Shown piece after piece: positions 7,961 to 60,018 of a DNA stretch of 64,000 nucleotides. Location of the stretch: positions 13,368 through 77,367 of the forward strand of contig WQZB01000008.1 of the NCBI GenBank assembly GCA_009780955.1, given 5' to 3'. The first letter of the stretch is position 1; the number at the start of each line of letters is the position of its first letter. Source of the DNA: Polyangiaceae bacterium (lineage in GTDB: Bacteria > Myxococcota_A > Polyangia > Polyangiales > Polyangiaceae). The notes under the pieces were generated by a model. The model was not told the origin of the DNA, ran no database searches, and saw only the letters and a list, made by a program, of their open reading frames with translations. The position numbers and the translations under genes are program-made.

Positions 7961-8947
7961 GTGGCAAACGAAAATCGAAAGATTGGTCTGAAGGCTATTG
8001 AAGCGGCTCGCGCTGAACGGGCACGCTCCAAGATTGGTCGAATCTCTGGCCTCTTTTTGGCTGTTGCGGGCGTGGGCGTGGCGTTGGCGCTGCTCGCGGG
8101 TTGGCTCGTATCCAACCGCGCGCTTGCACACGACAAAGAAAAGCTGCTTGCTGAGCAGCACGCGGCAATCAGCACCGTAGGCACCAAGTGGGACTTGCTT
8201 CGGGAAAAAATCGAGAAATTCACACTCGAAGCAGCTGGCCCTTACAAGGGTGATGACGTCGATCCCAGCGTGGTGAAATGGGATTTTCGCTTCTCGCCTG
8301 GCATTTACTTGCGCCTACGCATCGAAGACGCGGCGAATGTCTCTGAGCTTCGCAAAGCCATACAAAACTCGGTGAAAGACGCATTCACCGGCTGCCTCTT
8401 GCGAGAAACGACCCCCGCCATCGTTCACGGCGATCCTGATACGCCTGATGCGAGCGCGGCGCCCGCGGCACCGTGGAATCTGCGCAAAGCGTACAGTGCC
8501 GCGCGCGTGCTAACGGACGATTGGGCGGGTGAAGTGCGCGAAGCCGACAACAAGATGCGCCTTTTGATCTTTGAGCAAGAGTACGACAAGGCGAAGAAAG
8601 TCGATCTTCCAATACTCGTCGACATCACCACGAAGGCCGAGTTCTACTTGCTCGTGCTCGACGAAAACATGCCTGCCAAGGATTCCGCCGTGAATGACAG
8701 CACCGTGAATGAAAACTCGGGGGCACCAGGCGATCTGCAAGTGCCCCACCCCGCGCGCGTGCTTGTCATGAATCTCAAAACCGGCTCCGAGGTCGTGCGC
8801 TTGCGCAGAGTCGGCAACGCCGACGTCCGCATGATCGGAGACAGGGCTTTGCTGGACACAGAGGTGCGCGAAGCCGTGCGTCGCCAGGTGAACAACTGCG
8901 CGCTAGCAAACGAAGTGTGGTCGGCCATTCGACCGGCTTCACCTTGA
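7961..8947 (+). CDS. Hypothetical single-pass membrane protein
   Basis: Long ORF with one TM (GLFLAVAGVGVALALLAGWLV); GTG start inferred because the 7922 start lies inside a hairpin; last codons and stop come from the repeat at 8931-9073. Confidence 0.7.
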   Translation: MANENRKIGLKAIEAARAERARSKIGRISGLFLAVAGVGVALALLAGWLVSNRALAHDKEKLLAEQHAAISTVGTKWDLLREKIEKFTLEAAGPYKGDDVDPSVVKWDFRFSPGIYLRLRIEDAANVSELRKAIQNSVKDAFTGCLLRETTPAIVHGDPDTPDASAAPAAPWNLRKAYSAARVLTDDWAGEVREADNKMRLLIFEQEYDKAKKVDLPILVDITTKAEFYLLVLDENMPAKDSAVNDSTVNENSGAPGDLQVPHPARVLVMNLKTGSEVVRLRRVGNADVRMIGDRALLDTEVREAVRRQVNNCALANEVWSAIRPASP

Positions 8948-9073
8948 GGCGATTTTGGCCGATCTCTTCGTTGGCGGCTGCGGTGCCTGCGCACGTACCA
9001 CAACGTACGCTTACGCGGGCTCCTCGCCGCCGCCTCGACCTCGGCTCAAACTCGCCTCAACTTGAACGCGGTC
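8931..9073 (-). mobile_element. Structured mini-element (MITE-like), type-A termini, long core
   Basis: Minus strand reads GACCGCGTTCAAGTTGAGGCGA...TCGCCTCAAGGTGAAGCCGGTC; a ~48 bp core is identical to the one in 35148-35291. Confidence 0.8.
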
Positions 9074-9100
9074 TCGCGCCAGTGCGACGCCTCGTACAAA

Positions 9101-9790
9101 CTAACGTGGTGGGCGGTCGCCCAAATCGACCACGTGAGCGCCGAAGATCTGCTGCCACGAGGCGAGCACATTGAAATAAAGCGAACGATCGCTCGGCCCC
9201 GTGAGTTCGTCGCCAGCAAGGGCGTGATCGCTGAAGCGGCACCCGGCATGCACGCTCAGCATGGGGCCGGTGGCCTTTGAGAAGATGGGAAGATCAAACC
9301 CAATGCCGGCTTGTAGCCCGGGGCGGGCTCCGAAAGCGCTACCTTCTGGTTGCATGAAAACGGCACCGAGTTCGAGCCCGAACGAGTCGATAGCAAGATC
9401 GATGCGCGGCACACCGAGCTCCATGCCCTCGAGCCAGCGCGCAAAAAAAAGCGGACGCAACTCGACGCCGAATGCCACGATGCGGCGAGGGTCGGACTTT
9501 GCACTGGCCAGCGGCCCGTCTTCGTAGGTTGCGAAAATTCCTGCAGTTTGCAAGTATCGGAGGCGAAGATCGGCGGCGGCGCGAGGAGATCGTGGACCAA
9601 ACGTTACGCCAACGCCGGCCAGAGCAGCCATGTCGCCGTCGATACGACCATAGGCCGTGTCGATTTTCCTCGCAGCCTCGAGCACTGGGACAGAGTGTTC
9701 ATCGGCGCGCGCATTGCGTGCGTTCGATGATGCGAAGGCCGGAGCCAGCGCTGCGCCGACGGCGATGGCTGCCATGCGCGCACGCTTCAT
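9101..9790 (-). CDS. Hypothetical exported protein (possible small outer-membrane beta-barrel)
   Basis: Signal peptide MKRARMAAIAVGAALAPAFA followed by alternating hydrophobic strands; overlaps the HD gene stop. Confidence 0.7.
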   Translation of the reverse strand: MKRARMAAIAVGAALAPAFASSNARNARADEHSVPVLEAARKIDTAYGRIDGDMAALAGVGVTFGPRSPRAAADLRLRYLQTAGIFATYEDGPLASAKSDPRRIVAFGVELRPLFFARWLEGMELGVPRIDLAIDSFGLELGAVFMQPEGSAFGARPGLQAGIGFDLPIFSKATGPMLSVHAGCRFSDHALAGDELTGPSDRSLYFNVLASWQQIFGAHVVDLGDRPPR

Positions 9791-11079
9791 GAGCCCAGCA
9801 CGCGCGTGATGTCTTCGCGGAGTTCGGGAGAAAAGATGATGCGCACACGTGATATTTCTTGGCCAGCAAGGCGGCCAAGAAGGAACGACACATCGCGGAG
9901 TTGGCGCGCCGGGCCTTTGGAGAAAACGACGAGAAGCGACTCACCAAGCCCATCGCCGAATGGCGTGTCACTCGCTACGTCGAGCCCGACGAAAACATCT
10001 GGGTTCATGCCTCGGTCGCGCGCCACCTTGCGCGCCATCTCGAGCGCCTTTGCCCGACCTTCTGCAAGTGCTTGTTCGCCGAAGAGTTCGAAAGTTTTGA
10101 ATAGCTGGCGCTCGCGCACACGCATTGACAAATTTGCGAGATCGGCGTCAGGGCCGGATGCCCACGCGTGCATTGCCACCGTCAGCACGGCGTCGTCGAG
10201 CTCGAGATAGTCGGCAAGCAGAGGGGGCTCGCCGTGCGCTGCGTGGACGATCGCCCGCGGCGTACCAACGAGGCGCACGCCGCTCGCGATGAGCGAGCTT
10301 ACCCGCTTGAGCACCGTGCGGATCATCCACTCGGCCGAGCGAGTTGCCTTATGGAGGTAGACCTGTTGAAACATGGAAAGGCGGCCAAGGATAAACGCTT
10401 CGATCGCGGGCAAGCCCTTCGCACCGTCAATGGCAAGCCCCGGCGCTTGGCCGTCGAGAGCGGGCGCAAAGCGAAGGCTGCGAAAGAGCCAATCGAGATC
10501 GAAATTTCCGTAACGTACGCCGGTTGCGTGCGCGTCACGCAAAAGGTAGTCGCAGCGATCGACATCGAGCGTGCCGCTGACGGCGCGCGCGAGGTACGGC
10601 AAAGGGTGCTCGCCACGAATGAGCGCTGCTACGCGCTCGGGCATGTGAGAGTCAATGCTTGCGAGTTTTTGGTGAACCGAAGTGGACGGATCAACAATGA
10701 TCTTCTCGGTCCAGTCCTCATGGTGTTTTGTACCCAAAATAGCGTCTTCGAACAGATGCGACAGCGGTCCGTGCCCCACGTCGTGAAGAAGAGCCGCTGC
10801 GAGCGCGTCTTGCGCTCGGTCGCTCGTAACCTGCTGCCAGAACGGCAGCTCGCCATGGATTTGGCGCAAACGCGAAATGAGCAATTTCATCACGTGAGAT
10901 GTGCCAATCGCGTGGGCAAACCGGGTGTGCTCGCCTCCTGGGAACGCGTACGACGCAACACCGAGCTGACGAATGCGGCGCAGGCGCTGGACCTCCGGCG
11001 TGTCGATGAGCTGGGGGATCACGCGCTCTTCGTCGGCCTCGAACGACACGAGCCCGTGCACCGCATCGCGCAAGATCAT
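9787..11079 (-). CDS. HD-domain phosphohydrolase (YwfO/SAMHD1-like)
   Basis: RDAVHG, QRLRRIRQLG, HTRFAHAIG, LLHDVGHGPLSH, DVDRCDYLLRD, VYLHK. Confidence 0.92.
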   Translation of the reverse strand: MILRDAVHGLVSFEADEERVIPQLIDTPEVQRLRRIRQLGVASYAFPGGEHTRFAHAIGTSHVMKLLISRLRQIHGELPFWQQVTSDRAQDALAAALLHDVGHGPLSHLFEDAILGTKHHEDWTEKIIVDPSTSVHQKLASIDSHMPERVAALIRGEHPLPYLARAVSGTLDVDRCDYLLRDAHATGVRYGNFDLDWLFRSLRFAPALDGQAPGLAIDGAKGLPAIEAFILGRLSMFQQVYLHKATRSAEWMIRTVLKRVSSLIASGVRLVGTPRAIVHAAHGEPPLLADYLELDDAVLTVAMHAWASGPDADLANLSMRVRERQLFKTFELFGEQALAEGRAKALEMARKVARDRGMNPDVFVGLDVASDTPFGDGLGESLLVVFSKGPARQLRDVSFLLGRLAGQEISRVRIIFSPELREDITRVLGS

Positions 11080-11147
11080 GACGGAGCCTTATGCCTTGCA
11101 CGGCGGGCATTCATCGCGCAAAAAGGCATACCCTGTTGCTACTAAGT

Positions 11148-13157
11148 TTGGTTGACATTCTGAACGCGTTGCCTGCATCCGAGCTGAATTCGCTCGTCGC
11201 ACGCCTTGGCATTCGCCTTGACCCCGCCAAGCGCTTGGGTCCGCCGCAGCAAGTGGCACGCGCACTCGTGGCGCTTGCGGACTTGCGTGATCCAAGTCGC
11301 CTGCCGCAAACGAGCGTCGAGCTCGTACACCGCATCGCCGAAGCAGGCGGCGCGCTCGTCATTGCGACCATGCCAACGTCGGTGCAGCCCCTTGTCGAGC
11401 GCGGAATTCTTTTCGCGCGCACAACGGACACTGGAAAGCTTCAATTGCTGCTGCCTGCAGCGTACCTCGTCCAATTGCGCTCGTGGGAGGGCGAAGACCC
11501 GAAAGGCATGCGTGCGCTCGTGGCGCAGGCTTCGTTCGAAACGATGAGCGCAATCGCCGCGCACTACCTTGGAAGGCCTGCAACACCGCCCATTGCCTTG
11601 TCGCTCGAGACCGCATGGCAGGTGCTCGGCAGCCACGATGGCTTGCGCGAAGAGATTGGAAAGCTCTCGCTCGGCGAACGGCGCGTGCTCGAAGTCATCG
11701 AAGAGCTCGGTGGCGAGGTCGACACCGAAGAACTGCTCGACCTCGAACGCGAGCCGTTGCGCATGCGAACGGCGGCGGGCGCAACCCCATCACGACGCGG
11801 TGTTGGCTTCTCGCTCGAACGCAAAGGCATGCTCATTCCCGTTTATCCGAACAGGCACATCGTACCCACCGAGGTCGCTCAAATCGTCGGCGCCAGGCGC
11901 AATGCCGCGCGCGAACGGCGCCGCGAGCAAATACGCACATTCGTGCTCGAAGGCGATCACGCACCCCGCCGCGCGCGCTTCTCGACCCATGCTGCCCTCT
12001 TCGCGATGGGGCTCGCCCTGGCGGTCCGCGAGACCGGAAACGAGGTCCGCTCCGGAATTGGCACGCCAAAGTCGCTCGTATCAAAGCTTGCCACGCGCTT
12101 CGGGCGTGATTCCCACGAGGTCGCGCTCGTTGCCTCGCTCTCACGCGCCATCGGGCTCTGGGACACTTCAGCAATCAGTGCAAGCGCGCCACCAGGCTCA
12201 CTCGACCTCCGCGACCTCGCTCGACATCTGTTTCTCGCATGGCAGCGCGGTGGTGCGTGGGACGAGGCTCGCAGCGAGCCCGAGATGCTCCGCTTGCCAC
12301 CCGATCAACGCGACTGCAGCGCAAGCGGCGTCGTGCGCGAGCTGGTGCTCGAAGCTTTGCGTGATCTCGGCGAGAGCCGCTGGATTCCGTGGACAAGCCT
12401 TGAAGGATACTTGAGCGCTGACCGTCACATTGCGGGCATCGAGCGCCTGCTACGCCGATGGGCAGAACGCGCTTCGGTGCCCACTACTACACCGATGGAA
12501 GTGGCACGCCGCATCGTGCTCGAAAGCCTTCCAACACTCGGCATCCTCGATCTCGGCGAAGAGAACGACGACAACGGCAAACCCGAGATCGCGCTTCGAC
12601 TGACGAAGATCGGACGCTGGCTCGTTACGGGCGAGATCCCCGCGTTCGACACGACCAAGTCGCAATTCGTGGGCACGCAGGTACTCAGAATTGGCGGCGG
12701 CACAACCGTTGGCGCGATTCTAAGCTTGTTCGGCTTTGCCGACGTCGATCGCGCTTCGGAAACGCTCGATCTCGTCATTGCGCCCCATTCGATCGTGCGG
12801 GCGATTTCGGCAGGCTACGAAGCCGACACTCTTCGCCAACGCATTGAGGCTGTTGCGCCAGTGCCCGAAGGCCTGTCACACACTCTGACGCAGGCAAGCA
12901 TTGTCATTGGGCGCGGATTGTTCGCGTTGGCAAGCGGTTTTTTGTGGGTCGACGACCCGAACATCCGCGAGCTATTGCGCACGCGCAGATCCACCGCCGA
13001 ACTCTTTGTCGATCCTTCTCCACCAGCGGGTTTGCTCGTTGCACCTCAGGTCGATCTCGATCGCCTCGTGCGCCGGTGCCGAACCGTTGGCATCGAGATC
13101 GTGCTCGAGGGGCAGGTGCTTCGCGGGCGCTCGATGTCGAACCGTAAGATTTCGTAG
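11148..13157 (+). CDS. Hypothetical protein with probable C-terminal XPB-associated (Helicase_C_3-like) domain
   Basis: Long ORF; SIVRAISAGYEADTLRQRIEAVAPVPEGLSHTL resembles the helicase-associated domain; no Walker motifs seen; start codon uncertain. Confidence 0.6.
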   Translation: MVDILNALPASELNSLVARLGIRLDPAKRLGPPQQVARALVALADLRDPSRLPQTSVELVHRIAEAGGALVIATMPTSVQPLVERGILFARTTDTGKLQLLLPAAYLVQLRSWEGEDPKGMRALVAQASFETMSAIAAHYLGRPATPPIALSLETAWQVLGSHDGLREEIGKLSLGERRVLEVIEELGGEVDTEELLDLEREPLRMRTAAGATPSRRGVGFSLERKGMLIPVYPNRHIVPTEVAQIVGARRNAARERRREQIRTFVLEGDHAPRRARFSTHAALFAMGLALAVRETGNEVRSGIGTPKSLVSKLATRFGRDSHEVALVASLSRAIGLWDTSAISASAPPGSLDLRDLARHLFLAWQRGGAWDEARSEPEMLRLPPDQRDCSASGVVRELVLEALRDLGESRWIPWTSLEGYLSADRHIAGIERLLRRWAERASVPTTTPMEVARRIVLESLPTLGILDLGEENDDNGKPEIALRLTKIGRWLVTGEIPAFDTTKSQFVGTQVLRIGGGTTVGAILSLFGFADVDRASETLDLVIAPHSIVRAISAGYEADTLRQRIEAVAPVPEGLSHTLTQASIVIGRGLFALASGFLWVDDPNIRELLRTRRSTAELFVDPSPPAGLLVAPQVDLDRLVRRCRTVGIEIVLEGQVLRGRSMSNRKIS

Positions 13158-13181
13158 GGGCGCAGCATTGGAGCCCCTGCG
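13153..13181. repeat. Degenerate GTAG-class REP palindrome
   Basis: CGTAGGGGCGCAGCATTGGAGCCCCTGCG, a decayed copy of the 34433-34462 palindrome; its TAG is the stop codon of the upstream gene. Confidence 0.75.
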
Positions 13182-13189
13182 CGCAACGA

Positions 13190-14464
13190 CTACGTAGACA
13201 CCATGGCAAGGCGTTCGTCAACCCACGCATCCATCGTGCGCCGCGGTGAAATGGCTTCAATGCGTCCACCTCGAACGAAAACCTCGGCGGGCAATGTGCG
13301 GCCGTTGTATTGACTCGCCATCGAGAAGCCGTACGCACCTGCGTCGAGGATGGCAACTTCGTGCAATGGGCCTTCGGGCAGCTCGTGCACGCCAAAGTCG
13401 TCGGAGCTCTCGCAAACAGGACCGACAACGCGGAACATGCCGACAGGGCCTGGCACACTACGAAGCGGCACAATGCGATGCCGCGCCTGATAGAGAGCAG
13501 GGCGAATGAGATCGTTCATGCCCGCGTCGAGGATGATCCAGCGGCGCCCTGCATCGCCGATTTTGCGTTGTGTAACGCGCGCGATAAGAACGCCGTGAGC
13601 GCCAACGAGTGACCGGCCTGGCTCGCAATAAAGAGCCAGATCACGCAGGCCACATTTTGCCTCGAGAGCGAGCGCGGCGCGGATGAAATCAGCTGGGCGC
13701 GGGGGACAACCATCGCCGTAGTCGATGCCGAAGCCGCCGCCCGTGTCGACGTACGACAAGGCAAAGCGTGGCATGATTTCGCGTGCCAGTTGGAAAAGTG
13801 TGCGAGCAGACAAGAGATACGTGTCGACACTCGTGATCTGCGAGCCAACGTGCGCGCTTACCCCTACCAAACGCATCCAGGGAGTTTGCGCGATCATGTC
13901 GAGCGCATTGGCGATGCGGGAAAGAGGAACACCGAACTTCGCCTCGTCATGGCCTGTAGCAATGTGGGCATGCGTGTCGATGTCTTCGACGTGGACGGCA
14001 GGGTTCACGCGAATCGAAATGCGCGCCACGCGGCCGGCCTCTTTTGCACGTGCACCAATGCGTGTGATTTCCTCGACGCTCTCGACATGGATCGCGCCAA
14101 TGCCTTCTGGGCCGGCAGCGATGGCTCTGTCGATTTCATCATTTTGCTTGGCAACACCGCTGTACACGATTTTGCTTGGAGCGATCCCCAAACGCAGTGC
14201 GAGGGCTAGCTCGCCACCGCTGACCACATCAGCGCCGCACCCTTCTGCCGCAAGCGCGCGAACGATGGGCGGCGCCGAGTTAGCTTTCACGGCGTATGCG
14301 ACGAGATGCGGAGCACCGCCAAAAGACGCCTCGAGACAGCGGGCCTCGTTCGCCATGGCATCGACGTCGTAGACATACGACGGCGTGCCAATGCGACGAT
14401 CGGCAACGATGTCCGAAAGACGAAGGCCGCCATACTCAAGGCTAAACTCAAGGGGTCTGTTCAA
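13190..14464 (-). CDS. lysA: Diaminopimelate decarboxylase
   Basis: AYAVKAN (PLP lysine), HVGSQ, EPGRSLV, GPVCESSD, AGAYG. Confidence 0.96.
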   Translation of the reverse strand: MNRPLEFSLEYGGLRLSDIVADRRIGTPSYVYDVDAMANEARCLEASFGGAPHLVAYAVKANSAPPIVRALAAEGCGADVVSGGELALALRLGIAPSKIVYSGVAKQNDEIDRAIAAGPEGIGAIHVESVEEITRIGARAKEAGRVARISIRVNPAVHVEDIDTHAHIATGHDEAKFGVPLSRIANALDMIAQTPWMRLVGVSAHVGSQITSVDTYLLSARTLFQLAREIMPRFALSYVDTGGGFGIDYGDGCPPRPADFIRAALALEAKCGLRDLALYCEPGRSLVGAHGVLIARVTQRKIGDAGRRWIILDAGMNDLIRPALYQARHRIVPLRSVPGPVGMFRVVGPVCESSDDFGVHELPEGPLHEVAILDAGAYGFSMASQYNGRTLPAEVFVRGGRIEAISPRRTMDAWVDERLAMVST

Positions 14465-14595
14465 CTTGCAAAGCGGTCTAGCGCACTTCGTAGGTTACAG
14501 TTTCGGAAAATCCGCAAGCCACCCTTGCCAAGCACGCCTGCATGTCTGATTCTCGCGCGGCCTGCTACCCCGGACTTTCTCACGCAGCCAACACC

Positions 14596-16011
14596 ATGTC
14601 GATCCGCCGTTCGAAGCTCATATGTACTCTTGGCCCTGCTTCCGATTCCGTCGAAAAGTTGAAGAGCCTCATCGACGCCGGAATGGACGTCGCTCGCTTC
14701 AACTTCTCGCACGGCTCGCATGAAGAGCACGCAGCGCGCCTCAACAAACTGCGCGCCGCAAGCGACGAGAAGCGAAAGCCGATCGCCGTCTTGCAGGATT
14801 TGTGCGGTCCGAAGATCCGCACGGGCAAGTTCGCTTCCCCCTTCGACCTGAAAACAGGCGCAGAGCTTTTGCTCACCGACGGCAACGACTCCGACATGGG
14901 AAGCGAAGTCATGATCCCGATCTCGTACGAAGGTCTGGCGGTCGACGTTCGCGTTGGCGACCGCATCATGTTCGATGATGGGCGCATCGTGCTTGCCGTC
15001 AAAAGCATCGAGGGAGACAAGGTTCGCGTCGTGGTTACGCAAGGCGGTAGCATGCGAAGCCGCGTTGGTGTTCACTTGCCCACGCGCACTTTGCGCATCG
15101 GTGCGCTCACCGAGAAAGACAAATCCGATCTTGCCTTTGGTTTGTCGATCGGCATCGATTACGTCGCGCTTTCATTCGTGCGCCGGGCCGACGACATACG
15201 CCTCGTGCGAGAAATCTGCCAAGAGTGGGGCAAGCCCACGCCCGTTGTTGCGAAAATCGAAACGCCGGAAGCCGTCGAAAACATCGAAAGCGTCGTTGCC
15301 GCATCCGATGCGGTCATGGTCGCTCGCGGCGATCTCGGCGTCGAGTTTCCACCGGAGCGCGTGCCAGTCATTCAACATCAGATCCTCGCTGTGGCGCGCC
15401 GCGTGCGCCGGCCGGTGATCATCGCGACCGAAATGCTTCAGTCGATGACGAAGAACTCGCGCCCCACGCGCGCCGAAGCTAGCGACGTTGCACACTCCGT
15501 GCTTGCAGGCGCCGACTGCGTCATGCTCTCGGGTGAAACGGCCAATGGCGACTACCCAACGGAAGCCACCGCGATGATGAGCGCCATCGCAGTGGAAGCC
15601 GAGTCGAGCCCATTTTTTGAATCTGCGCCCTATGCAACGCGCGCCATGAACGTGCCGGAAGCCGTGGCACGCGGCGCGGTCAACACGGCGCGCGAGATCG
15701 GCGCGAAGTTCCTCGTAGCATTCACCGAAACGGGAATGAGCGCGAGGAACGTAAGCCTCGCCCGTCCGTCTGTGCCCGTTGTCGCGTTCTCACCCAACCC
15801 GCAAACGCGTCGGCGCATGGCACTTCTTTGGGGCGTGATTCCACGCGAGGTGCCTGCCAACAACAACAGCGACACGTTGGTAGATTGGGTAACGGGCGAC
15901 TTGATGGCAAGTGGCCTGGCTTCACCAGGCGAACGCGTCGTTATCGTATTCGGAGCGCCCATTGGCGTTGCGGGTAGCACCAACACGATTCGTGTTCACG
16001 TCGTCGGGTGA
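14596..16011 (+). CDS. pyk: Pyruvate kinase
   Basis: KLICTLGPAS, ARFNFSHG, DLCGPKIR, AKIE, MVARGDLG, ATEML, DCVMLSGETA. Confidence 0.98.
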   Translation: MSIRRSKLICTLGPASDSVEKLKSLIDAGMDVARFNFSHGSHEEHAARLNKLRAASDEKRKPIAVLQDLCGPKIRTGKFASPFDLKTGAELLLTDGNDSDMGSEVMIPISYEGLAVDVRVGDRIMFDDGRIVLAVKSIEGDKVRVVVTQGGSMRSRVGVHLPTRTLRIGALTEKDKSDLAFGLSIGIDYVALSFVRRADDIRLVREICQEWGKPTPVVAKIETPEAVENIESVVAASDAVMVARGDLGVEFPPERVPVIQHQILAVARRVRRPVIIATEMLQSMTKNSRPTRAEASDVAHSVLAGADCVMLSGETANGDYPTEATAMMSAIAVEAESSPFFESAPYATRAMNVPEAVARGAVNTAREIGAKFLVAFTETGMSARNVSLARPSVPVVAFSPNPQTRRRMALLWGVIPREVPANNNSDTLVDWVTGDLMASGLASPGERVVIVFGAPIGVAGSTNTIRVHVVG

Positions 16012-16023
16012 CCGCTTTCGATT
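16010..16023 (-). repeat. Isolated right-end remnant of the type-A mini-element
   Basis: GACCGCTTTCGATT is the reverse complement of the AATCGAAAGCGGTC right end at 24289-24302; it overlaps the pyk stop codon. Confidence 0.55.
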
Positions 16024-16042
16024 ACGAACATGCGTTTTGTCT

Positions 16043-16185
16043 GTAGGGGCGCCATTTATGGCGCCCGGGCGCGGCGGCCGATCCCGAGGGCGCGATGAAT
16101 CGCGCCCCTACAACCGAAAAACGCAAATAACGCGATTGGCGGTAGGGGCGTATGGCCATACGCCCCTACACGCAATCGCCCCTAT
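16043..16185. repeat. REP cluster (inverted doublet plus palindrome)
   Basis: GTAGGGGCGCCATTTATGGCGCCC..GGGCGCGATGAATCGCGCCCCTAC (16043-16111), GTAGGGGCGTATGGCCATACGCCCCTAC (16142-16169), partial head 16178-16185; lies between convergent genes. Confidence 0.9.
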
Positions 16186-17897
16186 TTTTTCGCGTAGACG
16201 TCGTGCAATTGGCGCTTAAGCACCTTACCGGTGGGGTTTCGCGGAAGGGTATCGAGGAAGATGAAATCGCGCGGGACCTTAGGACCGGCGAGCTTTTCGC
16301 GGGTGAAAGCCTTGAGCGCCCCGGCGTCGACGCTGCGCCCAGGCTTGAGAACGACGAAAGCACAAACGCGCTCGCCCCACTCGGCATCGGGCATGCCGAC
16401 AATGGCGACTTCGGCGATGTCGGGGTGGTGTTCGAGAACGCCTTCGACCTCGGCGGGGTAAACGTTGACGCCACCCGAGATCACCATGTCGCGTTTGCGC
16501 CCTTCGAGAAAGTATCGCCCCCGATCGTCGCATCGCGCAAGATCGCCAACACTGAAGTAGCCATCGCGCATGCTCGCTCGCGTTTCCGCTTCGTTGCCAT
16601 GATAGCCAGCGACGAGAAGCTGGTTTTTCACATAGAGCTCGCCAACTTTTCCCGCGGGGACATCGCGCCCGTCGTCGTCAAGGAGCCGGATTGAGTTGCC
16701 AGGCAAGGCCTTGCCGATGGTGCCCGGCGCGGCCCGCATGTCAGCGGGCGAAGCGAGCGTCACGAGGCCGGTTTCGGTCGCGCCGTAGAATTGATAAAGC
16801 ACATCTCCAAATTCGTCCATGAACGACAAAGCTTGCGGCGTAGGCAAAGGTGCACCGCCCACAATGACGGTGCGAAGCGAACGCGCCGAGTATTTCATGC
16901 GTACTTCCTGCGGCAACTCGAGCACGCGGTGAAGCATTGTCGGCACAACAGCGGTTGTCGTGATGCGATGGCGCTGGACGGTTTGAAGGAACGCCTCGGG
17001 CTTGAAGTCGTCCATGAGCACCACGGTGTTGCCAAGCAAAAGCGAGAACGACATAAAGCCAAACGCTGTCGTGTGGTAAAGCGGGCAGGCGACGAGGTGA
17101 ATGTCGTCAACGCGAAAGGGCGTTTCGTTGATGAAGCGAAACGCGGCGTTCATCGTGTCTTTCGGGAACTTGCGAACAGCACCTTTTGGTTTACCTGTCG
17201 TGCCCGAGGTGTAGATGACGAGCGACGCATCGTCGTCGACTATCGCGTCAGGCTCGTTACGCCCAACGCGAGTCGATGCGTTATCGAGAAGCGACTCGTA
17301 GGCGACGTATCCCGCCGGCTCCGCAAGCGCCCGACCCGTGGAAACAACGATGAGGTTCGCAATGAGGGCGTCAGGGAGCTCGCCCTTCGCATGCTCGATG
17401 ACCGGAAGAAGCGCCTCGTCAATGACAAGGCCGACCGCACCCGAATCACTTGCAAGGTAAGCAAGCTCTTTGGCGGTGGAGCGCCACGAAATGGTCACAG
17501 CCGATGCACCGAGGCGGGAGGCAGCAGCGCCAATCTCGACGAATTCGATGCTGTTGCGCATCATGACGAGCAAGCTTTTGCCTTTGGTAATGCCCCGTTT
17601 TGTGAGCCCCGCGGCAAGGCGGTCGATGCGCGCGTCAACCTCGCCCCAGGTGAGCGCGCGGTCGTGATAGATGAGCGCGATCTTATCCGGCGAATTTATC
17701 CCGTGTAGCCGGTAGATTTGCGCTGGGTTTTGCGAACCCCTCCATAGGATTCGCACAAGCTCGCGCGTGCCGGGCACAGTGAGCTCCCACAAAATACCAG
17801 TGCCGACCGCGAGGCGGGCAGTTGTTGCGACGCGCTCTGGCGCGTTGCGTAATGTGTCAATCAACAAACGACTGCGTTTGAGCAGGACATTCCACAT
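16182..17897 (-). CDS. AMP-binding acyl-CoA synthetase/ligase
   Basis: IYTSGTTGKPKGA, YGATETG, SVGDLA, GRKRDMVISGGVNVYPAEVE, LPRNPTGKV. Confidence 0.95.
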   Translation of the reverse strand: MWNVLLKRSRLLIDTLRNAPERVATTARLAVGTGILWELTVPGTRELVRILWRGSQNPAQIYRLHGINSPDKIALIYHDRALTWGEVDARIDRLAAGLTKRGITKGKSLLVMMRNSIEFVEIGAAASRLGASAVTISWRSTAKELAYLASDSGAVGLVIDEALLPVIEHAKGELPDALIANLIVVSTGRALAEPAGYVAYESLLDNASTRVGRNEPDAIVDDDASLVIYTSGTTGKPKGAVRKFPKDTMNAAFRFINETPFRVDDIHLVACPLYHTTAFGFMSFSLLLGNTVVLMDDFKPEAFLQTVQRHRITTTAVVPTMLHRVLELPQEVRMKYSARSLRTVIVGGAPLPTPQALSFMDEFGDVLYQFYGATETGLVTLASPADMRAAPGTIGKALPGNSIRLLDDDGRDVPAGKVGELYVKNQLLVAGYHGNEAETRASMRDGYFSVGDLARCDDRGRYFLEGRKRDMVISGGVNVYPAEVEGVLEHHPDIAEVAIVGMPDAEWGERVCAFVVLKPGRSVDAGALKAFTREKLAGPKVPRDFIFLDTLPRNPTGKVLKRQLHDVYAKK

Positions 17898-17929
17898 GGC
17901 TTCCTCTGTATCAGGTATCCTTGAGGTCG

Positions 17930-18388
17930 ATGTCCGAGGCAGAACACAAGGAAAGCGGCGGGCGGTGTGACGATGAGCGCGCCCCAATCACGCTGCGTGT
18001 CGACTATAAGCGCCTTAATACATTTTTTGCCGACTACACGAAAAACATTTCGAGGGGGGGCACGTTCATCCGCACGACACGCCCGCTCGAGATTGGCACC
18101 GAATTCGTCTTCATTCTCTCCGTACCGTCGGCGGCTCGGTCGGAAACCGCGCCAACACAGCCAACACAAGATACCGTGCAGCTCGAGCTTACCGGTGTTG
18201 TCAAGTGGGTCGTGCAAGCTAGTGAAGCTTCGTCAGAACGGCCCGCCGGCATGGGCATTCAGTTTGTTTTCGCCGACGAGAAGGACCGGCAACGAGTTCG
18301 GTCGATCGTTTCCGGCCTCATGCACGACACGCTTGGTCCACATCTCACGCAGAGGCTGCTCGGTGTGAGCCCACCCGGAAGCCTATAA
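17930..18388 (+). CDS. PilZ-domain protein (myxobacterial TIGR02266 type)
   Basis: ERAPITLRVDY, NISRGGTFIRT, GMGIQF. Confidence 0.9.
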   Translation: MSEAEHKESGGRCDDERAPITLRVDYKRLNTFFADYTKNISRGGTFIRTTRPLEIGTEFVFILSVPSAARSETAPTQPTQDTVQLELTGVVKWVVQASEASSERPAGMGIQFVFADEKDRQRVRSIVSGLMHDTLGPHLTQRLLGVSPPGSL

Positions 18389-18433
18389 GAGACTCTGCTG
18401 AAAACTTTTTCAGCAGCCTGTAGGTTGAAGGCT

Positions 18434-19411
18434 ATGATGATTCGTTCGCTGCCCATCGCTGGGCGCACTTTGGCAGATCCGGTCGATCCGTCGCTCGATC
18501 TCGAGGAAGAAATTGCCAGGCTGAAGAAAGATCGCAATGCGATCGTTCTCGCGCACTACTACCAAGACAGCGAAATCCAAGACATTGCCGATTTCATTGG
18601 TGACTCGCTGCAGCTTGCGCAGGCAGCCGCAAAAACAAACGCGGATGTCATCTGCTTTGCGGGTGTTCACTTCATGGCCGAAACGGCGAAAATTCTGAAC
18701 CCCAATCGCGTGGTCGTGGTTCCCGATCTCGAAGCAGGTTGCTCGCTCGCTTCCGGCGCCCCGGCCGACAAAGTGGCCGCGTGGAAGGCGCGCCACCCCG
18801 GATCTATTCTTGTAAGTTACATCAATTGCTCGGCCGACGTGAAAGCTCTCTCCGACTTCATCGTCACGTCTTCGAATGCAGAGAAAATTGTCGCGCGAAT
18901 TCCGTCCGAAACCACCGTCCTGTTCGCGCCCGACAAAAACCTCGGGCAGTATCTCAATAAGAAACTTGGTCGAAGCATGATTCTTTGGCAAGGAACGTGC
19001 ATTGTGCACGACACCTTCAGCGAGCGAAAAATCGAGGGACTGAAGCTTCGACACCCAAAGGCACTGCTTCTTGCCCATCCGGAATGCGAAGACGTGGTGC
19101 TGCGTATGGCCGACTATGTTGGGTCGACCACGGGCATTATCAATTACGCCACGAAAAGCGACAAAACCGAATTCCTTGTCGCCACCGAACCGGGGATTTT
19201 GCACCAATTGGCAAAAGCGGCGCCGAACAAAACATTCGTCCCTGCCCCACCAGAAGCGAACTGCGCGTGCAACGAGTGCCCGCACATGAGGAAAAATACG
19301 CTCGAAAAGGTTTACCTCTCGCTTCTCAACCTCGAGCCCCGGCTCGAAATGAACGAGGCGCTACGCAACGCCGCGCGGGTACCGATCGACCGCATGCTGG
19401 CATTGTCATAA
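18434..19411 (+). CDS. nadA: Quinolinate synthase
   Basis: LAHYYQ, GDSLQL, GVHFMAETAK, GCSLA, CIVH, HPEC, CNECPHM. Confidence 0.97.
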   Translation: MMIRSLPIAGRTLADPVDPSLDLEEEIARLKKDRNAIVLAHYYQDSEIQDIADFIGDSLQLAQAAAKTNADVICFAGVHFMAETAKILNPNRVVVVPDLEAGCSLASGAPADKVAAWKARHPGSILVSYINCSADVKALSDFIVTSSNAEKIVARIPSETTVLFAPDKNLGQYLNKKLGRSMILWQGTCIVHDTFSERKIEGLKLRHPKALLLAHPECEDVVLRMADYVGSTTGIINYATKSDKTEFLVATEPGILHQLAKAAPNKTFVPAPPEANCACNECPHMRKNTLEKVYLSLLNLEPRLEMNEALRNAARVPIDRMLALS

Positions 19412-19422
19412 CCGCAGACACA

Positions 19423-20256
19423 CTAGATTTCTGTCATCAAGGTTGTGGCGATGTAATCGGCAGCAAAAATCGCGACAATGCTAGAAACCACTGCTTTCGC
19501 GGTGGCCTCGCCAACGCCGCGGGCACCGCCCGAAGCGAAGAAGCCTTTCTTGCAGCAGATGGTGCTGACAAGGCCTCCAAAAATGGCACTTTTGACGAGC
19601 AGCATGCGAATGTCAGCAAACTTCACGAACGCTTGCACGCGGTCGAAGAAAATGCCTGGGTCAATGGCCTGCCAAACCACTGCAACGAGCCAGCAGCCAA
19701 ACATGCCCGCAAGGCCGAACACGAGCGCCAGAAGCGGCAGCACAAGGGTCGTTGCCAACACGCGCGGCACAACAAGATATTGAATTGGGCTAACTCCCAT
19801 CGTGGTGATGGCGTCGATTTGCTCGGTCACACGCATGGTCCCAAGCTCGCTCGCCATGGTGCTACCCGCGCGGGCGGTGACTACGACCGCAGCAAGAACG
19901 GGGGCAAGCTCGCGCGCCAAAGCGAGGGCCACGACGCCACCCACCATGCCTTCCGCCGAGAACTGCCGAAACCCGAGGATTGTGCTTACCGTAAACGCCA
20001 TTCCGGTGAACAAGCCCACGAGGCCCGCGATGAAAAGCGAGCCAGTGCCAATGAATTCCACGGCAATCAGCACCTGCGCAATACGAAAAGGCGGCCGGAA
20101 AAGCCAAACCATCGTGCGCCCGAAAAGCAGCACTGTCGCGCCGAGATCGTCAAGAATGTCGAGTACGGGGTCGAGCACATAGTCGACAATGGCAAGTACG
20201 CTGGCAAGTGCGTTTCGCGACTTTGGAGTTTCGGCATTTTGGGACGCGTCCGCCAC
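19423..20256 (-). CDS. mlaE: MlaE-family ABC transporter permease
   Basis: RELAPVLAAVV, RAGSTMASELGTMRVTEQIDAITTMG, GGARGVGEAT. Confidence 0.93.
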   Translation of the reverse strand: MADASQNAETPKSRNALASVLAIVDYVLDPVLDILDDLGATVLLFGRTMVWLFRPPFRIAQVLIAVEFIGTGSLFIAGLVGLFTGMAFTVSTILGFRQFSAEGMVGGVVALALARELAPVLAAVVVTARAGSTMASELGTMRVTEQIDAITTMGVSPIQYLVVPRVLATTLVLPLLALVFGLAGMFGCWLVAVVWQAIDPGIFFDRVQAFVKFADIRMLLVKSAIFGGLVSTICCKKGFFASGGARGVGEATAKAVVSSIVAIFAADYIATTLMTEI

Positions 20257-20359
20257 GGCACGCGGAGTCTACCGCGCTTTGGTCGCGCTGCAGCAACGCG
20301 GTCTTGTCGCGGAAGGCAGACGGCGCAATTCTGTAGGCGATTCATAGGCGATTCAATCG

Positions 20360-21601
20360 ATGGGATTCTGGCCTTTTTCGCGAAACAAACCGAGCGTTGA
20401 AGCTGCCGATTCAGTGCCAAACACCGTCGCACCGGCGCCCTTGCTCGAGCCCACGGTGAGCGTGAGTGGCAACAGCGATGTCGATCGTCTCATCAAGGTC
20501 GGCCTCGCGGAAGGGCCCACGGTGAACGAAGCGCTCGCTCTCTTCGCTGCCCTGCGAAAAACTCCGGCCGAGGCGCGCGCGGTAGCCGAGCTCACTCGCG
20601 AAGCCGCGCTGCGTGCACTTGCCGAGCCGATTCTGCTCGCACTCGCCACGGCGTTGATCGATCGCGGGGAAATCGACGCCGCCGCATTCGTCCTTCAAAA
20701 CACGACGAGCGCACCCGCTCTCGTCTTTCGCGCGGATCTTGCCGAGATGCGCGGCGAAGTGCCAAGCGCTTTGTCATTAATCGAGCGCGCGCTGCTGATC
20801 GATTTCGATCATTACGGAGCACGCGAACGCCTTCGCCGCTATCGCATCCAATTAGGCTACGCAGGCGAAGCGAAAAGCGAAGCCCAAGGAGCCACAATCG
20901 TCACACGCGAACCCGACGCACCGTTCGATTTGTTACGAGAAGTGGGCCGCGGTGGCGCCGGCGCTGTCTACGAAGCTGTCGATCGCGAGCTTGGTCGGCA
21001 CGTCGCGCTCAAAATTTACCACCAGCCCGAGCGCGATCGCGTGCAGCTCACCCACGAAGCCACCGTGGCGGTGGCGCTCGCAGGCCCGGGCATCGTACGT
21101 GTGTTCGATATCGATCCAGAGCACGGCTGGATCGCGCTCGAGTGGGCCGCCCTCGGCACGCTGCGCGAACACATCCGAAGCCGCAACGCAAGCCTGCTCT
21201 TGCCTGTCGACCGCTTGGCAATCGGCCTTGCACAAGCTCTCGCGCGCGTCCACACCAAAGGCTGGGTCCATCACGACGTCAAGCCAGGGAACGTGCTCGT
21301 CACAAAAAGCGGCGATGTTCTCATCGCAGACTTCGGCACTGCTGCGCGCATCGGCCAGCCAAGCCCTCCCGGCAGCCTTGGCTATCTATCGCCCGAGCGC
21401 TTGGCAGGTCGAGCAAGCGATCCGCGCGACGACGTTTACGGCTTTGGCCGCATCCTCGAAGAGGTGCTCAACGCGCTCAACGCGCCTAACACAATAGCCA
21501 GCGCGCAAAAAAAACGTTTTCGCGCTCTTGCGAGTGCGTGCACGGGCCCCGATGAATCTCGCCCCGCGGATGCGCGTGAAGTGCTCGCACAGCTCCGTTA
21601 G
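20360..21601 (+). CDS. Hanks-type Ser/Thr protein kinase with helical N-terminal domain
   Basis: GRGGAGAVY, VALK, HHDVKPGN, DFG, YLSPE, DVYGFG. Confidence 0.92.
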   Translation: MGFWPFSRNKPSVEAADSVPNTVAPAPLLEPTVSVSGNSDVDRLIKVGLAEGPTVNEALALFAALRKTPAEARAVAELTREAALRALAEPILLALATALIDRGEIDAAAFVLQNTTSAPALVFRADLAEMRGEVPSALSLIERALLIDFDHYGARERLRRYRIQLGYAGEAKSEAQGATIVTREPDAPFDLLREVGRGGAGAVYEAVDRELGRHVALKIYHQPERDRVQLTHEATVAVALAGPGIVRVFDIDPEHGWIALEWAALGTLREHIRSRNASLLLPVDRLAIGLAQALARVHTKGWVHHDVKPGNVLVTKSGDVLIADFGTAARIGQPSPPGSLGYLSPERLAGRASDPRDDVYGFGRILEEVLNALNAPNTIASAQKKRFRALASACTGPDESRPADAREVLAQLR

Positions 21602-21646
21602 GAGCGCGAGGACTTCTGGCGGTCGTGATATAACGACCAATCTGTC

Positions 21647-22819
21647 ATGCCTACTACGTACACCGATCTTATCGCCAGCGTTCGCCGCGAAATCAAAGAA
21701 ATCTCGCTCAAAGAACTCAAGCGAAGGCTCGACGCGAAAGAGCCTTATGTCTTGCTCGATGTCCGTGAAAAAGACGAATATCGCGCGGGCTTCATTCCCG
21801 GTGCCATCTCGATTCCGCGCGGCTTTCTAGAAATCCAGATCGAGGGGTGTATCCCCGATAAGTCGACCAAGATCATCACATTTTGCGCGGGTGGCGTACG
21901 CGCAGCACTCGCGGCGAAAGCGCTCGCCGAGCTTGGTTACACGAACGTTGAGGCAGCCAACCCTGGCTTCGTTCATTGGAAAGAGCTCGGCTACCCGTTC
22001 GAAATGCCCCCGCAGCTCACCGATGTGCAGCGCAATCGATATAGAAGGCATTTGCTCTTGCCCGAAATCGGCGAGGCCGGTCAATCAAAGCTTCTCAAAA
22101 GCAAAGTGTTGCTCATCGGCGTCGGCGGGCTCGGGTCCCCCATAAGCCTTTATCTTGCTGCCGCGGGCGTTGGAACGCTCGGCATCGTCGACGCCGACAC
22201 GGTCGATGCCTCGAACCTTCAGCGGCAGCTTTTGCACTCCACGAGTCGCATTGGTCAGCCAAAGGTCCAAAGCGCACAAAAAGTGCTTTCCGATCTGAAC
22301 CCCGACGTCAAAATTGTAGGGTACAACGATCGCATCACGGTCAAGAATGTCGACCAGATCGTCGCCGATTACGAAGTCATCGTGGATGGCACCGACAACT
22401 TCCAAACGCGTTATCTCATCAACGACGCGAGCGTTTTTCACGCAAAGCCCGTTGTTCATGGTTCGGTCTTCCGCTTCGATGGGCAGGTAACGACGTTCGT
22501 GCCCGAAAGCGCCGCGAAGAAACTCGGCATCGAGCCAGGCCCCTGCTACCGGTGCCTCTACCCCGAACCGCCGCCGCCAGCCCTCGCGCCAGGGGGCGGC
22601 AAAGAAGCGGGCTTGCTTGGCATTCTGCCTGGTGTCATCGGTGTGCTCGAAGCCACGGAAACCATCAAACTGCTACTCGGTCTCGGTGAGCTCTTGGTCG
22701 GCAGGCTTCTTACCTACGACAGCTTGCGCGCAAAGTTTCGCGAGCTCAAACTGCGTCGCGATCCAAACTGCTCGGTGTGCGGCCCAAACAAAACCATCAC
22801 GAGCTACGTCGACTATTAA
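21647..22819 (+). CDS. moeB: Rhodanese-MoeB/ThiF fusion (MoeZ-like adenylyltransferase)
   Basis: Rhodanese CAGGVR, then RYRRHLLLPEIG, GVGGLG, SNLQRQ, CYRC and CSVC zinc motifs; the usual active-loop Cys is absent. Confidence 0.9.
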   Translation: MPTTYTDLIASVRREIKEISLKELKRRLDAKEPYVLLDVREKDEYRAGFIPGAISIPRGFLEIQIEGCIPDKSTKIITFCAGGVRAALAAKALAELGYTNVEAANPGFVHWKELGYPFEMPPQLTDVQRNRYRRHLLLPEIGEAGQSKLLKSKVLLIGVGGLGSPISLYLAAAGVGTLGIVDADTVDASNLQRQLLHSTSRIGQPKVQSAQKVLSDLNPDVKIVGYNDRITVKNVDQIVADYEVIVDGTDNFQTRYLINDASVFHAKPVVHGSVFRFDGQVTTFVPESAAKKLGIEPGPCYRCLYPEPPPPALAPGGGKEAGLLGILPGVIGVLEATETIKLLLGLGELLVGRLLTYDSLRAKFRELKLRRDPNCSVCGPNKTITSYVDY

Positions 22820-22890
22820 AGGGCGCGATGAATCGCGCCCCTACGACCAACCAAACGCGTTCGTAGGGGCGTATGGCCATACGCCCCTAC
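22820..22890. repeat. REP cluster
   Basis: GGGCGCGATGAATCGCGCCCCTAC plus GTAGGGGCGTATGGCCATACGCCCCTAC between convergent genes. Confidence 0.9.
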
Positions 22891-24074: not shown

Positions 24075-24178
24075 CAGTCCTCCTCGTCCGGGGAAAGTCC
24101 CGGCGCGTGAAGGGCAAAGTCCTACATTGTGCGACATTGGCCAACTTTGTAGCGTTTCTTTTTTTCAGAAGCCCCTAA

Positions 24179-24302
24179 GACCGCTTTCAAGTTGACGCGA
24201 GTTCAAGGCGGCCGGCGAGGAGCGGACCGGAACAGCCTGCTTTGGCTTTGAGGACCGCACCGGAGCCGCCAACGACGAAATCGCGTCAAATCGAAAGCGG
24301 TC
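24179..24302 (+). mobile_element. Structured mini-element (MITE-like), type-A termini
   Basis: GACCGCTTTCAAGTTGACGCGA...TCGCGTCAAATCGAAAGCGGTC imperfect TIRs, flanked by TAA/TAG; nearly identical to 32119-32241. Confidence 0.85.
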
Positions 24303-24316
24303 TAGAAGGCTCTTCC

Positions 24317-26153: not shown

Positions 26154-26163
26154 TTATTCGCTT

Positions 26164-56904: not shown

Positions 56905-56908
56905 TTTC

Positions 56909-57086
56909 GTAGGGGCGCCATTCATGGCGCCCGACTGCAGGCGGATGCCGAGGGCGCGATGAATCGCGCCCCTACAATCAGCCAAACGCATACTTCGTAG
57001 GGGCGGCCCCCTGTGGCCGCCCCATAACCGTCAAAAAAACGCATCAAAACGCATATTCGTAGGGGCACCCCTTGTGGGTGCCCCTA
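56909..57086. repeat. REP cluster (doublet plus two variant palindromes)
   Basis: 56909-56975 doublet; GTAGGGGCGGCCCCCTGTGGCCGCCC at 56997; GTAGGGGCACCCCTTGTGGGTGCCCCTA at 57059-57086. Confidence 0.9.
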
Positions 57087-58234: not shown

Positions 58235-58244
58235 CAAAAAGGAA

Positions 58245-59786
58245 TTACGCCGCGCTCTGCGCCGTGCCGAACGCGTCGCGGTCGAGCACACGGCCGCTCA
58301 CGGCTTCCCCAACGTCAGACGCCGCAATCGCTGTGCGTCCGTCGAGATCGGCCAGGGTGCGGGCCACGCGAAGGACCTTGCCGTAGGCGCGCGCCGACAG
58401 CCCAAGACGCTTCACCGCGTCAGCAAGGATGTTCATGCCAGCTTCATCGAGCGCGCACACGCGTTCGATGTCGTGCTGCAAAAGACGCGCGTTCCATGGC
58501 TCCGATACTTCGCCTGCTTCCGCGCGCCCGCGTTGCACCCGACGCGCCATTTCGACCCGCGCACGAACCACACTGCTGCGTTCGCCACATGCTTTGCCTT
58601 GCAGAGCCGCGACATCGACAGGCCTGAGCGCAACATGAATGTCGAGTCGGTCGATGAGCGGACCGCTCAGACGTGATCGATACTCGCGCACTCGATCGCT
58701 CCGACAATCGCATCGCCGTGTTCCGTCTCCCATCCGGCCACACGGGCATGGATTCGTTGCGGCGATCACCATAGGTCTTGCCGGATAGGTGGCGGTGATT
58801 TGTGCGCGCGAAATCGTCACGAAGCCATCTTCCAGAGGCTGACGCAGCGCCTCGAGTGCGCCCCGCCGGAACTCGGCAAGTTCGTCGAGGAACAAAACAC
58901 CGTCGTGAGCAAGACTGACTTCCCCGGGCCGCGCGAGCTCACCACCGCCCACGAGAGCAGCCTCGCTCGCGGTGTGGTGCGGCGCGCGGAATGGGCGCTC
59001 GCCAAGAGAGCGACGCCGCATCCCCGCCACGCTATGAATCGCGAGAACGCCGAGCGCTTCGTCGCGCGAAAGAGGCGGCAAAATCCCTGGCAAGCGTCGC
59101 GCAAGCATGGTTTTTCCCGCGCCTGGCGAGCCGATGAAGAGCAAGTTGTGCCCACCAGCGGCAGCGACCTCGAGTGCCCGCCGCGCGGAGGCCTGCCCAC
59201 GCACGTCGCCAAGATCGTCACGTACTAGCACTTCCGGGAGCGAGTACGGCGACGCGGCTGCTCGCATGAGCGGACCTTCGCCACGCAGCGACGCGACGAG
59301 CTCCGCGAGCGTGCTCGCCACCCCGATTTCGATCCCTTCGACGAGGGCCGCCTCGGACTCATTGGCACGCGGAATGACCACGCGACCGACGCCTCGCGCG
59401 CGGGCCTCGAGCAAGTGCGCGACGAGCCCACGAACTGGATGCAGGCTTCCATCGAGCGAGAGCTCGCCGAGAAAGAGCACGTCCCGAGGGGCATCTTGGG
59501 AAACGGAGCCAAGGGCCGTGAGCGTTGCGACGGCAATCGCAAGGTCGAACGAGCTACCTCGCTTTTTTAGATCTGCCGGCGCAAGATTGGCGACAACACG
59601 GTATTCGCTGAGATCGACTCCAACGTTGGCAAGCGCGCTTCGAACGCGCACGCGGCTTTCACGAACTGCAGCTTCGGCATACCCCACTACTTCGAACGAC
59701 GGGATGCCACGCAGGACCTCGACTTCAACGCGAACAGGATGGGCAGCGAGCCCAACGAGGACAGAGCCATGTGCAATAGCGAGCAT
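58245..59786 (-). CDS. comM: ComM/YifB Mg-chelatase-like AAA+ helicase
   Basis: [76 protein letters not shown]. Confidence 0.95.
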
Positions 59787-59935
59787 GACCCGGGCACATT
59801 GCGATCTGTATGCCTAAGTGCATCTTGAATAATTCCCGTAGGATACAAATGCTGGAAACTGGCGGCGACAGATTTCGGGCTGGCGGCGACAATCTTGGGA
59901 TCGCCAATCATGCGCCTTCGCGGAAGATCGATTGG

Positions 59936-60018
59936 CTCGCTTTCAAGTTGACGCGAGATTTCGGCCAGAGGCCGCACCGCAGGCACCAACGAAGAGATCG
60001 CGTCAAATCGAAAGCGGG
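59936..60018 (+). mobile_element. Short type-A mini-element (internal deletion)
   Basis: CGCTTTCAAGTTGACGCGA...GCACCGCAGGCACCAACGAAG...TCGCGTCAAATCGAAAGCGGG. Confidence 0.8.

Follow-up and report, generated by a model that had tools for sequence, protein, structure and literature searches.

The DNA considered here (the window) is a stretch of 64,000 nucleotides from a Polyangiaceae bacterium, positions 13,368 to 77,367 of contig WQZB01000008.1 in assembly GCA_009780955.1, and it carries a family of short hairpin-forming repeats that share a structured core. An earlier note had described four full copies with the frame (A/G)AGGC-stem-GAGGAGC...GCACCG(C/G)A-stem'-AACG and a 6-bp stem that covaries between them, and this observation of the window repeats was confirmed. 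The frame was read in place in all four full copies, with approximately 31-33 nt between GAGGAGC and GCACCG(C/G)A. The stem is GGCGGC/GCCGCC in the copies at 8931 and 32119, GGTCCC/GGGACC at 35148, and carries an extra C at 24179 (arms GGCCGGC/GCCGCC); the right-arm variant GGCACC is present at 59936. The termini quoted for the type-A copies (TTGACGCGA/TCGCGTCAA and TTGAGGCGA/TCGCCTCAA) are also present, and the 8931 and 35148 copies, whose outer arms are unrelated, have an identical 48-nt stretch in common (GAGGAGCCCGCGTAAGCGTACGTTGTGGTACGTGCGCAGGCACCGCAG). The frame pattern matched the window three times, compared with 0.00 matches in 100 shuffles, and every copy folds as a single long hairpin whichever strand is taken (z-scores of -5 to -11). 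The window inventory comprises the four full copies, one internally deleted copy and one type-A shell with a different cargo, a sixth relative that was recovered by nhmmer; all six are intergenic.

The full copy at 8931-9073 is on the minus strand, between two convergent open reading frames (ORFs; 7922-8947, plus strand, and 9101-9790, minus strand). Its core occupies 8969-9035, the 6-bp stem (hereafter P1) is GGCGGC/GCCGCC and the apical stem is GCGTAC/GTACGT; the inner stem (GCCGAGGTCG/AAGAGATCGGC) is that of loci L043 and L088 from the scan described below, and it is enclosed by type-A-like outer arms (TTGAGGCGA/TCGCCTCAA). The covariance model R1, also described below, scores this copy at 73.5 bits (E = 2e-20). 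The full type-A copy at 24179-24302 (plus strand; core 24206-24274; 59.3 bits), in which the extra C is in the 5' arm of P1, is located between divergent genes: a peptidase M15-like gene (22887-24137, minus strand) and an ORF at 24317-24745 (plus strand). The latter begins 15 nt downstream of the element and encodes a 142-residue, Cys-rich protein with repeated C-x2-C and no Pfam match. A second full type-A copy (32119-32241, plus strand; core 32146-32213; 66.4 bits) is found between a moeA-like gene (30863-32146, minus strand) and a class II tRNA-synthetase-like gene (32241-33173, minus strand), and is antisense to both. A promoter-like site on the minus strand (32103-32130) faces the moeA-like gene and is composed of TTGAAA from the left end of this element and GATGAT from the flank, and the count of promoter-like sites in the region shows no excess over chance.

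The full type-B copy (35148-35291, plus strand; core 35186-35252; 55.4 bits) has GGTCCC/GGGACC as P1 and long outer arms (GAGGATGTTTACCAGCC/GGCTGGTAAACATCCTC), with CTAA on each flank. The internally deleted type-A copy (59936-60018, plus strand) keeps both outer arms and only the right half of the core (GCACCGCAGGCACCAACG, 59973-59990). The type-A-like shell at 34404-34507 (plus strand) has a decayed right arm and CTAG on each flank, and its core is replaced by a REP-like hairpin (GTAGGGGCGCAGCATGCTGCGCCCCTAC, 34434-34461).

One genome per species of the Genome Taxonomy Database (GTDB) was scanned with the pattern AGGC-N6-GAGGAGC-N25-45-GCACCGNA-N6-AACG, for which approximately one chance match per 596 Gb is expected by our own estimate. 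At least 96 loci were obtained (labelled L0xx), and the counts that follow rest on the matches listed. Among these, the core frame was found in metagenome-assembled genomes (MAGs) labelled Patescibacteria, Chloroflexota, Myxococcota, Bdellovibrionota (Bdellovibrionales), Desulfobacterota and Omnitrophota, the Patescibacteria hosts including Kaiser-, Yanofsky-, Magasanik-, Kerfeld-, Moranii- and Paceibacterota as well as Saccharibacteria. The hosts span at least five phylum-level groups, and some matches are on contigs of 0.4-5 Mb; a few host labels may be binning errors, and L072 is probably a chance match because its arms lack complementarity. Many of the hosts among the matches listed belong to epibiont or predator groups (Patescibacteria, Bdellovibrionales, Myxococcota, Omnitrophota), a pattern that sampling may explain. 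Neither the core nor a full copy had a BLAST match among plasmids and phages, and the core pattern had no match in IMG/VR.

The N6 arms were unconstrained in the scan and could therefore be examined for pairing. At least five of six Watson-Crick pairs were present in 56 of the 89 unique cores among the matches listed, compared with 0.5% expected by chance, and these cores used 47 different arms; many of the remaining cores had GCGAGC/GCGAGC, i.e., tandem G.A. A 31-pair structure was then written on an alignment of 21 copies from Patescibacteria and Chloroflexota (A2). In this alignment 92.1% of cells were paired (67.3% when shuffled), 25 of the 31 pairs changed on both sides, and pairing fell to 29-40% in a slid-partner control. 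The covariance model R1 was built from A2, without any window sequence, and when applied to the 64-kb window it recovered the four full copies and no other significant match. Each was on the expected strand and scored 55-74 bits (E of approximately 1e-15 to 1e-20); the next match scored 11 bits. Applied to 97 sources, which were scanned in 8-kb tiles with R1 and for partner genes, the model gave 123 copies (alignment A3), with 92.4% of cells paired (63.5% when shuffled; 30-34% in slid controls) and 28 of 31 pairs changing on both sides. The short helices P2 and P3 were fixed by the search pattern, and in 18 copies from outside that pattern these helices covary too (e.g., GAGC...GC, GAGT...AC, CC/GG). 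These observations show that the stems have been kept by compensatory change across distant lineages.

The elements are 120-150 bp long, with a conserved core of approximately 67 nt. From the outside inwards, a long outer stem of free, covarying sequence (P0) is followed by loop E, with (A)AGGC opposite AACG(A), the 6-bp P1 (covarying or tandem G.A), a loop of GA opposite G(C/G)A, a GG/CC helix, an A opposite an A, and a GC/GC helix. The apical part varies; it contains additional GA/GA loops and a stem of 6-7 bp with a G.U closing pair, and ends in an unconstrained loop. In the type-A copies of MAG Emb289P4bin34 and of the window (24179 and 32119) the arms are near-invariant (0.09 bit per column) and the apical loop of 5-6 nt differs from copy to copy in most cases, with 14 loops in 23 copies; this loop is either a local hot spot or an unconstrained site.

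The non-Watson-Crick cells of A3 distinguish the two strands. G.T was counted 189 times compared with 48 for A.C, and G.A or A.G 120 times compared with 19 for C.T or T.C; the bias has the same direction in all three helices. At the closing position of the apical stem, 66 copies have G.U, 41 have A-U and 12 have G-C. As the excess of G.T and G.A runs in the same direction throughout, AGGC...AACG is the strand whose pairing is kept. This strand is therefore under selection for folding, which fits RNA or single-stranded DNA (ssDNA) and not duplex DNA. The earlier note had proposed selection on a folded single strand with purine-rich internal loops, and that proposal is strongly supported and extended by three results: the stems covary over 123 copies, the G.U and G.A pairs are specific to one strand, and a model from other phyla recovers the window copies.

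The orientation of the structured strand relative to neighbouring genes was determined from crude ORF calls, counting only sites with both neighbours co-directional. Across the 123 copies it was antisense to its neighbours at 42 sites and sense at 16 (p of approximately 9e-4); the counts were 20 and 4 in low-GC loci, and 22 and 12 in high-GC loci, where the bias was not significant. At L046, three copies are found within a single run of minus-strand genes, two antisense and one sense. The plus strand of the window is C-rich throughout, and the structured strand is on that strand in five of the six shells. Local GC skew was rejected as a proxy for replication direction, being confounded with gene orientation in the 8-kb tiles. 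The simplest reading of the orientation bias, for which the usual models do not account, would be host selection against a tight top-strand fold within mRNAs.

The same core is found within at least four kinds of outer stem. In Polyangiaceae these are type A, type B, a AAACAGCG...CGCTGTTT type and the inner stem of L043 and L088; in the 8931 copy this last stem sits within type-A-like arms. Conversely, the type-A and type-B shells carry at least three other cargos in a related Polyangiaceae MAG. Cargos other than the core are the REP-like hairpin of the window shell at 34404 and the modules seen in L027, L091, L094, L095 and L015. The idea that the core is passed between miniature inverted-repeat transposable element (MITE) chassis is supported in part, and the description of those chassis as unrelated is only partly right. 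Type A and the Patescibacteria copies have in common an inner stem (AGTTC(A/G)AGGC ... AACG(A/C)AGAAAT) and a length of 123 nt, and for this reason the outer arms may be the fast-covarying part of one homologous element.

A second, unrelated repeat is also present in the window. It consists of GC-rich hairpins with a GTAG head (GTAGGGGCGC...GCGCCCCTAC) that resemble classical REP/BIME elements, at 16042-16169, 22809-22890, 34434-34461, 36066-36102, 41627-41718 and 56907-56977; one of these is nested within the type-A shell at 34404-34507.

The window DNA occurs in termite-gut metagenomes, and near-identical type-A and type-B copies are found all through the MAG 'Polyangiaceae bacterium Emb289P4bin34'; its host is therefore most likely a myxococcotal inhabitant of the termite gut. 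Logan contigs of termite-gut metagenome runs were placed on the window, and word depth and contig breaks were recorded. Word depth was 5,000-25,000 at the elements, compared with approximately 28 in flanking single-copy DNA, and the contigs break at every element; depth and breaks together point to hundreds of copies per genome equivalent. Two further runs of unknown type show only that the element is a repeat. At positions 32154 and 35192 most metagenome copies have a different base, and the window copies are therefore variants changed in both arms.

One metagenome run (X3) holds a related strain that is approximately 90% identical to the window. Its contigs join 32110 to 32240 with eight other letters between them, skipping the element at 32119, and join 35109 to 35320 with 73 letters instead of 210, so that the intergenic region is 137 nt shorter. 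As the X3 contigs bypass both elements, the insertions at 32119 and 35148 are absent from that strain, and the family is polymorphic for presence and absence between related genomes. A decayed copy (L046:6047-6170) and truncated copies (59936 in the window, and L030) were also found, as were head-to-tail tandem arrays of two to three copies (L086:4655-5085, L040:1976-2220, L033:1185-1440 and L059:5437-5802) and a solo terminus abutting a full copy (L023:1995-2141). Nested copies occur as well. The arrays and the abutting terminus suggest insertion next to or into existing copies. Empty sites together with decayed, truncated and tandem copies are the behaviour of a selfish repeat. In all copies the outer arms pair as terminal inverted repeats over 20-35 bp. 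The flanks are TA..TA or CTAG in the Patescibacteria-type copies L003, L046, L062, L063 and L071, CTAA..CTAA at 35148 and TTGA at L015, and most type-A copies have TA on one side only.

The earlier note had also suggested that the shells are mobilised by different transposases. This was left without support, as no transposase, split copy or autonomous partner was found. Split copies, solo termini on either side of an ORF and an autonomous insertion sequence (IS) with the same termini were all absent from the 97 sources, and these were covered as 8-kb tiles, so the absence is weak. No transposase was found in the contig flank, and clustering of 3,237 neighbouring ORFs revealed no recurrent transposase and no universal cis partner; an association with type IV pilus genes was seen in a few loci only. 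Such genes directly adjoin the element in five unrelated loci (copies L007:3855-3977, L061:2938-3061, L064:1045-1167, L080:3869-3992 and 1064-1187, and L097:7043-7162), the neighbours being pilC (Pfam T2SSF), pilB/pilT (T2SSE) and pilin-like ORFs with a GFTLIE motif. By a rough estimate this adjacency is far above chance, and it could reflect either insertion preference or function.

Evidence of transcription was also sought. No RNA runs were found for the window organism. One family member is located inside a 530-nt metatranscriptome contig. The metatranscriptome contigs of related sludge Polyangiaceae are mostly over a neighbouring conserved gene and carry no strand information. No promoter-like site was found inside the element and no terminator-like tail after it. 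No terminator-like site coincides with any element in 23500-36500, and an intrinsic terminator was rejected as the identity of the repeat on that basis.

Elsewhere in the window, two tandem paralogous ORFs (25206-25997 and 26164-27129, within 25206-27129) share stretches of 300 nt and 136 nt at approximately 75% identity, and a 75-nt tandem repeat is present at 26191-26340.

The element is thus discrete, high-copy and polymorphic by insertion, and its core looks like an undescribed structured nucleic-acid module. The explanation that we favour, tentatively and with slightly less than even confidence, is a mobile hairpin with a conserved core that forms a single-strand structure, which would be recognised by a protein required for its spread; we are much more certain that the repeats form a mobile, structured family that crosses lineages and has no entry in Rfam. 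On this explanation the repeat would be a non-autonomous, hairpin-forming element of 120-150 bp, MITE- or REPIN-like, with the structured module at its centre. The folded top strand would be acted on by a protein responsible for copying or moving the element, and that protein would probably be a dimer because the GA loops alternate with 2-bp helices. The substrate would more plausibly be ssDNA, with RNA as the alternative, and the outer stem would act as a clamp only. Master copies would retain the core because it is needed for spread, and hosts would tolerate insertions chiefly between genes and chiefly where the structured strand is off the mRNA. Several observations weigh against this explanation. 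No transposase, autonomous element or split copy was found, and strand-resolved RNA or ssDNA data were sought for the hosts and none were found. Target-site duplications are inconsistent: no single duplication can be defined, and the X3 empty site is too diverged to define one. Because 22 core bases were fixed in the collection pattern, their invariance is in part a product of the search itself. In IS200/IS605 elements of the IS608 type the active strand sits on the lagging-strand template, and the 42/16 antisense bias is the opposite of the prediction for such a system; it is also unlike read-through transcription of a useful RNA. Finally, all hosts among the matches listed are MAGs, and some phylum labels may be binning errors.

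An alternative that is possible, albeit less probable, is that the core functions as a structured RNA, for instance in protein binding, processing or stability or as a small RNA, and is spread by a mobile shell, with the host or the element benefiting from the transcript. Functional RNAs typically show a conserved G.U that swaps with A-U and G-C, tandem G.A loops, and helices of variable sequence separated by conserved purine loops; the significant orientation bias relative to transcription, the member inside the 530-nt metatranscriptome contig and the position beside pilC or pilin genes in five unrelated loci are also consistent with this alternative. However, the folded strand is mostly antisense to the neighbouring genes, so that read-through mRNAs carry the other strand, and the element has neither an internal promoter-like site nor a terminator-like tail. 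Both orientations occur within one gene run at L046, and hundreds of copies per genome, together with many decayed copies, are hard to explain by host function. A further alternative, in which the repeat carries a small catalytic RNA (such as a self-cleaving ribozyme) or some other RNA machine as its core, is very improbable. Hammerhead and HDV-like ribozymes are carried by repeats elsewhere, and the approximately 25 near-invariant bases confined to internal loops between free-sequence helices, in an element that is itself a repeat, would suit such an RNA; but the core resembles no ribozyme in Rfam, it folds as a simple rod without evidence of a junction or pseudoknot, and the orientation is again mostly antisense to transcription.

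Selection on the fold would not be required if the repeat were a conventional MITE, moved by cut-and-paste through a transposase of the IS630 or IS5 type, its core kept only by descent, recent amplification and quasi-palindrome correction by template switching. The long inverted termini, the TA or CTAG flanks of many Patescibacteria-type copies, the CTAA at 35148, the near-identity of type-A arms within a genome (0.09 bit per column) and the insertion polymorphism all agree with this possibility, which we nevertheless consider unlikely. Template-switch correction would erase asymmetric loops, yet the loops persist across phyla; conservation is lowest in the outer termini, where a DDE transposase would be expected to act, and highest in the centre; and the strand-specific excess of G.T and G.A is unexpected for duplex DNA. 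A matching transposase was not seen among the neighbouring ORFs or in the contig flank.

A more far-reaching proposal, rather doubtful when taken as a whole, is that the core is the recognition, or even catalytic, module of a new structure-dependent mobile element: a folded ssDNA or RNA read by a still-unseen, probably dimeric enzyme. The element would have passed among Patescibacteria, Chloroflexota, Myxococcota, Bdellovibrionota and Desulfobacterota. Alternatively, the core would be a new class of protein-binding or self-processing RNA riding on a repeat. Most small palindromic repeats are restricted to one lineage, and their centres are as a rule neutral. In the present family it is the centre that is conserved; its non-canonical pairs are strand-specific, and it is common to very distant bacteria, among which are many uncultured epibionts or predators. 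If the fold is read by a protein, the element would offer a route to a new mobilisation system or a new RNA-protein pair, and it would also be of use as a marker of gene flow between these groups. As hundreds of copies per genome break MAG assemblies, the family merits modelling and masking, and the covariance model R1 makes a census and experimental tests directly possible.

The family had not been recognised as a named one in the earlier note, and comparison with databases bears this out. Rfam 15 gave no matches in the window at gathering thresholds and only tRNAs in 18 diverse loci; in E-value mode it gave only noise (E of 0.3-6). No description of this element was found in the literature, ISfinder being outside the scope of that search. 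Two resemblances were rejected. A kink-turn could draw its bulge and G.A pairs from P1-GAG-GA, but positions 3b.3n and 4b.4n would be G.G and C.C, and the register is contradicted by the covarying GG/CC helix. An 11-nt identity between the apical loop of the 8931/35148 subfamily and the hairpin ribozyme was discarded because that loop is not conserved in the family.

If read by a protein as proposed, the element would be comparable to integron attC sites and to the ends of IS200/IS605 elements, which are folded ssDNA substrates: recognition would depend on structure rather than stem sequence, one strand would be active, and unpaired bases would mark identity. IS200/IS605 ends, however, have two separate subterminal hairpins, and their active strand is on the lagging-strand template, opposite to the bias observed here. 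An attC identity was rejected: the element lacks the R and L boxes (RYYYAAC ... GTTRRRY) and any AAC...GTT arrangement, AGGC lies unpaired opposite AACG, and the copies are scattered among housekeeping genes without cassette arrays.

The nearest known kinds are the REPIN/BIME, RIME, Correia and ERIC elements. Like REPIN and REP-BIME elements, which are mobilised by RAYT transposases (IS200-like Y1), the present element is a short, intergenic, imperfect palindrome of high copy number without a gene of its own, with a hairpin on one strand, mosaic and tandem arrangement, and compensatory stem changes. REPs have a GTAG head and are confined to a genus or family; this core lacks that head, has fixed purine-rich internal loops and is common to phylum-level groups. 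No RAYT gene was seen, without a genome-wide search, and the true REP-like hairpins of the window are a separate family. RIME (Rhizobium) and the BIMEs of E. coli show the same modularity, with inner modules in different outer modules and the reverse, but they are lineage-specific and have no known sequence relation to this element. Correia/NEMIS (Neisseria), ERIC/IRU (enterobacteria), RUP (pneumococcus) and Nezha (cyanobacteria) are of similar size (100-150 bp) and also have long inverted termini; like it, they are intergenic and polymorphic by insertion, and many copies have flanks of the TA type. The effects of Correia and ERIC on adjacent transcripts depend on orientation. In those MITEs the termini are conserved and each is restricted to a narrow taxon, whereas the element described here is conserved at its centre, has termini that covary freely and occurs in a very wide range of hosts.

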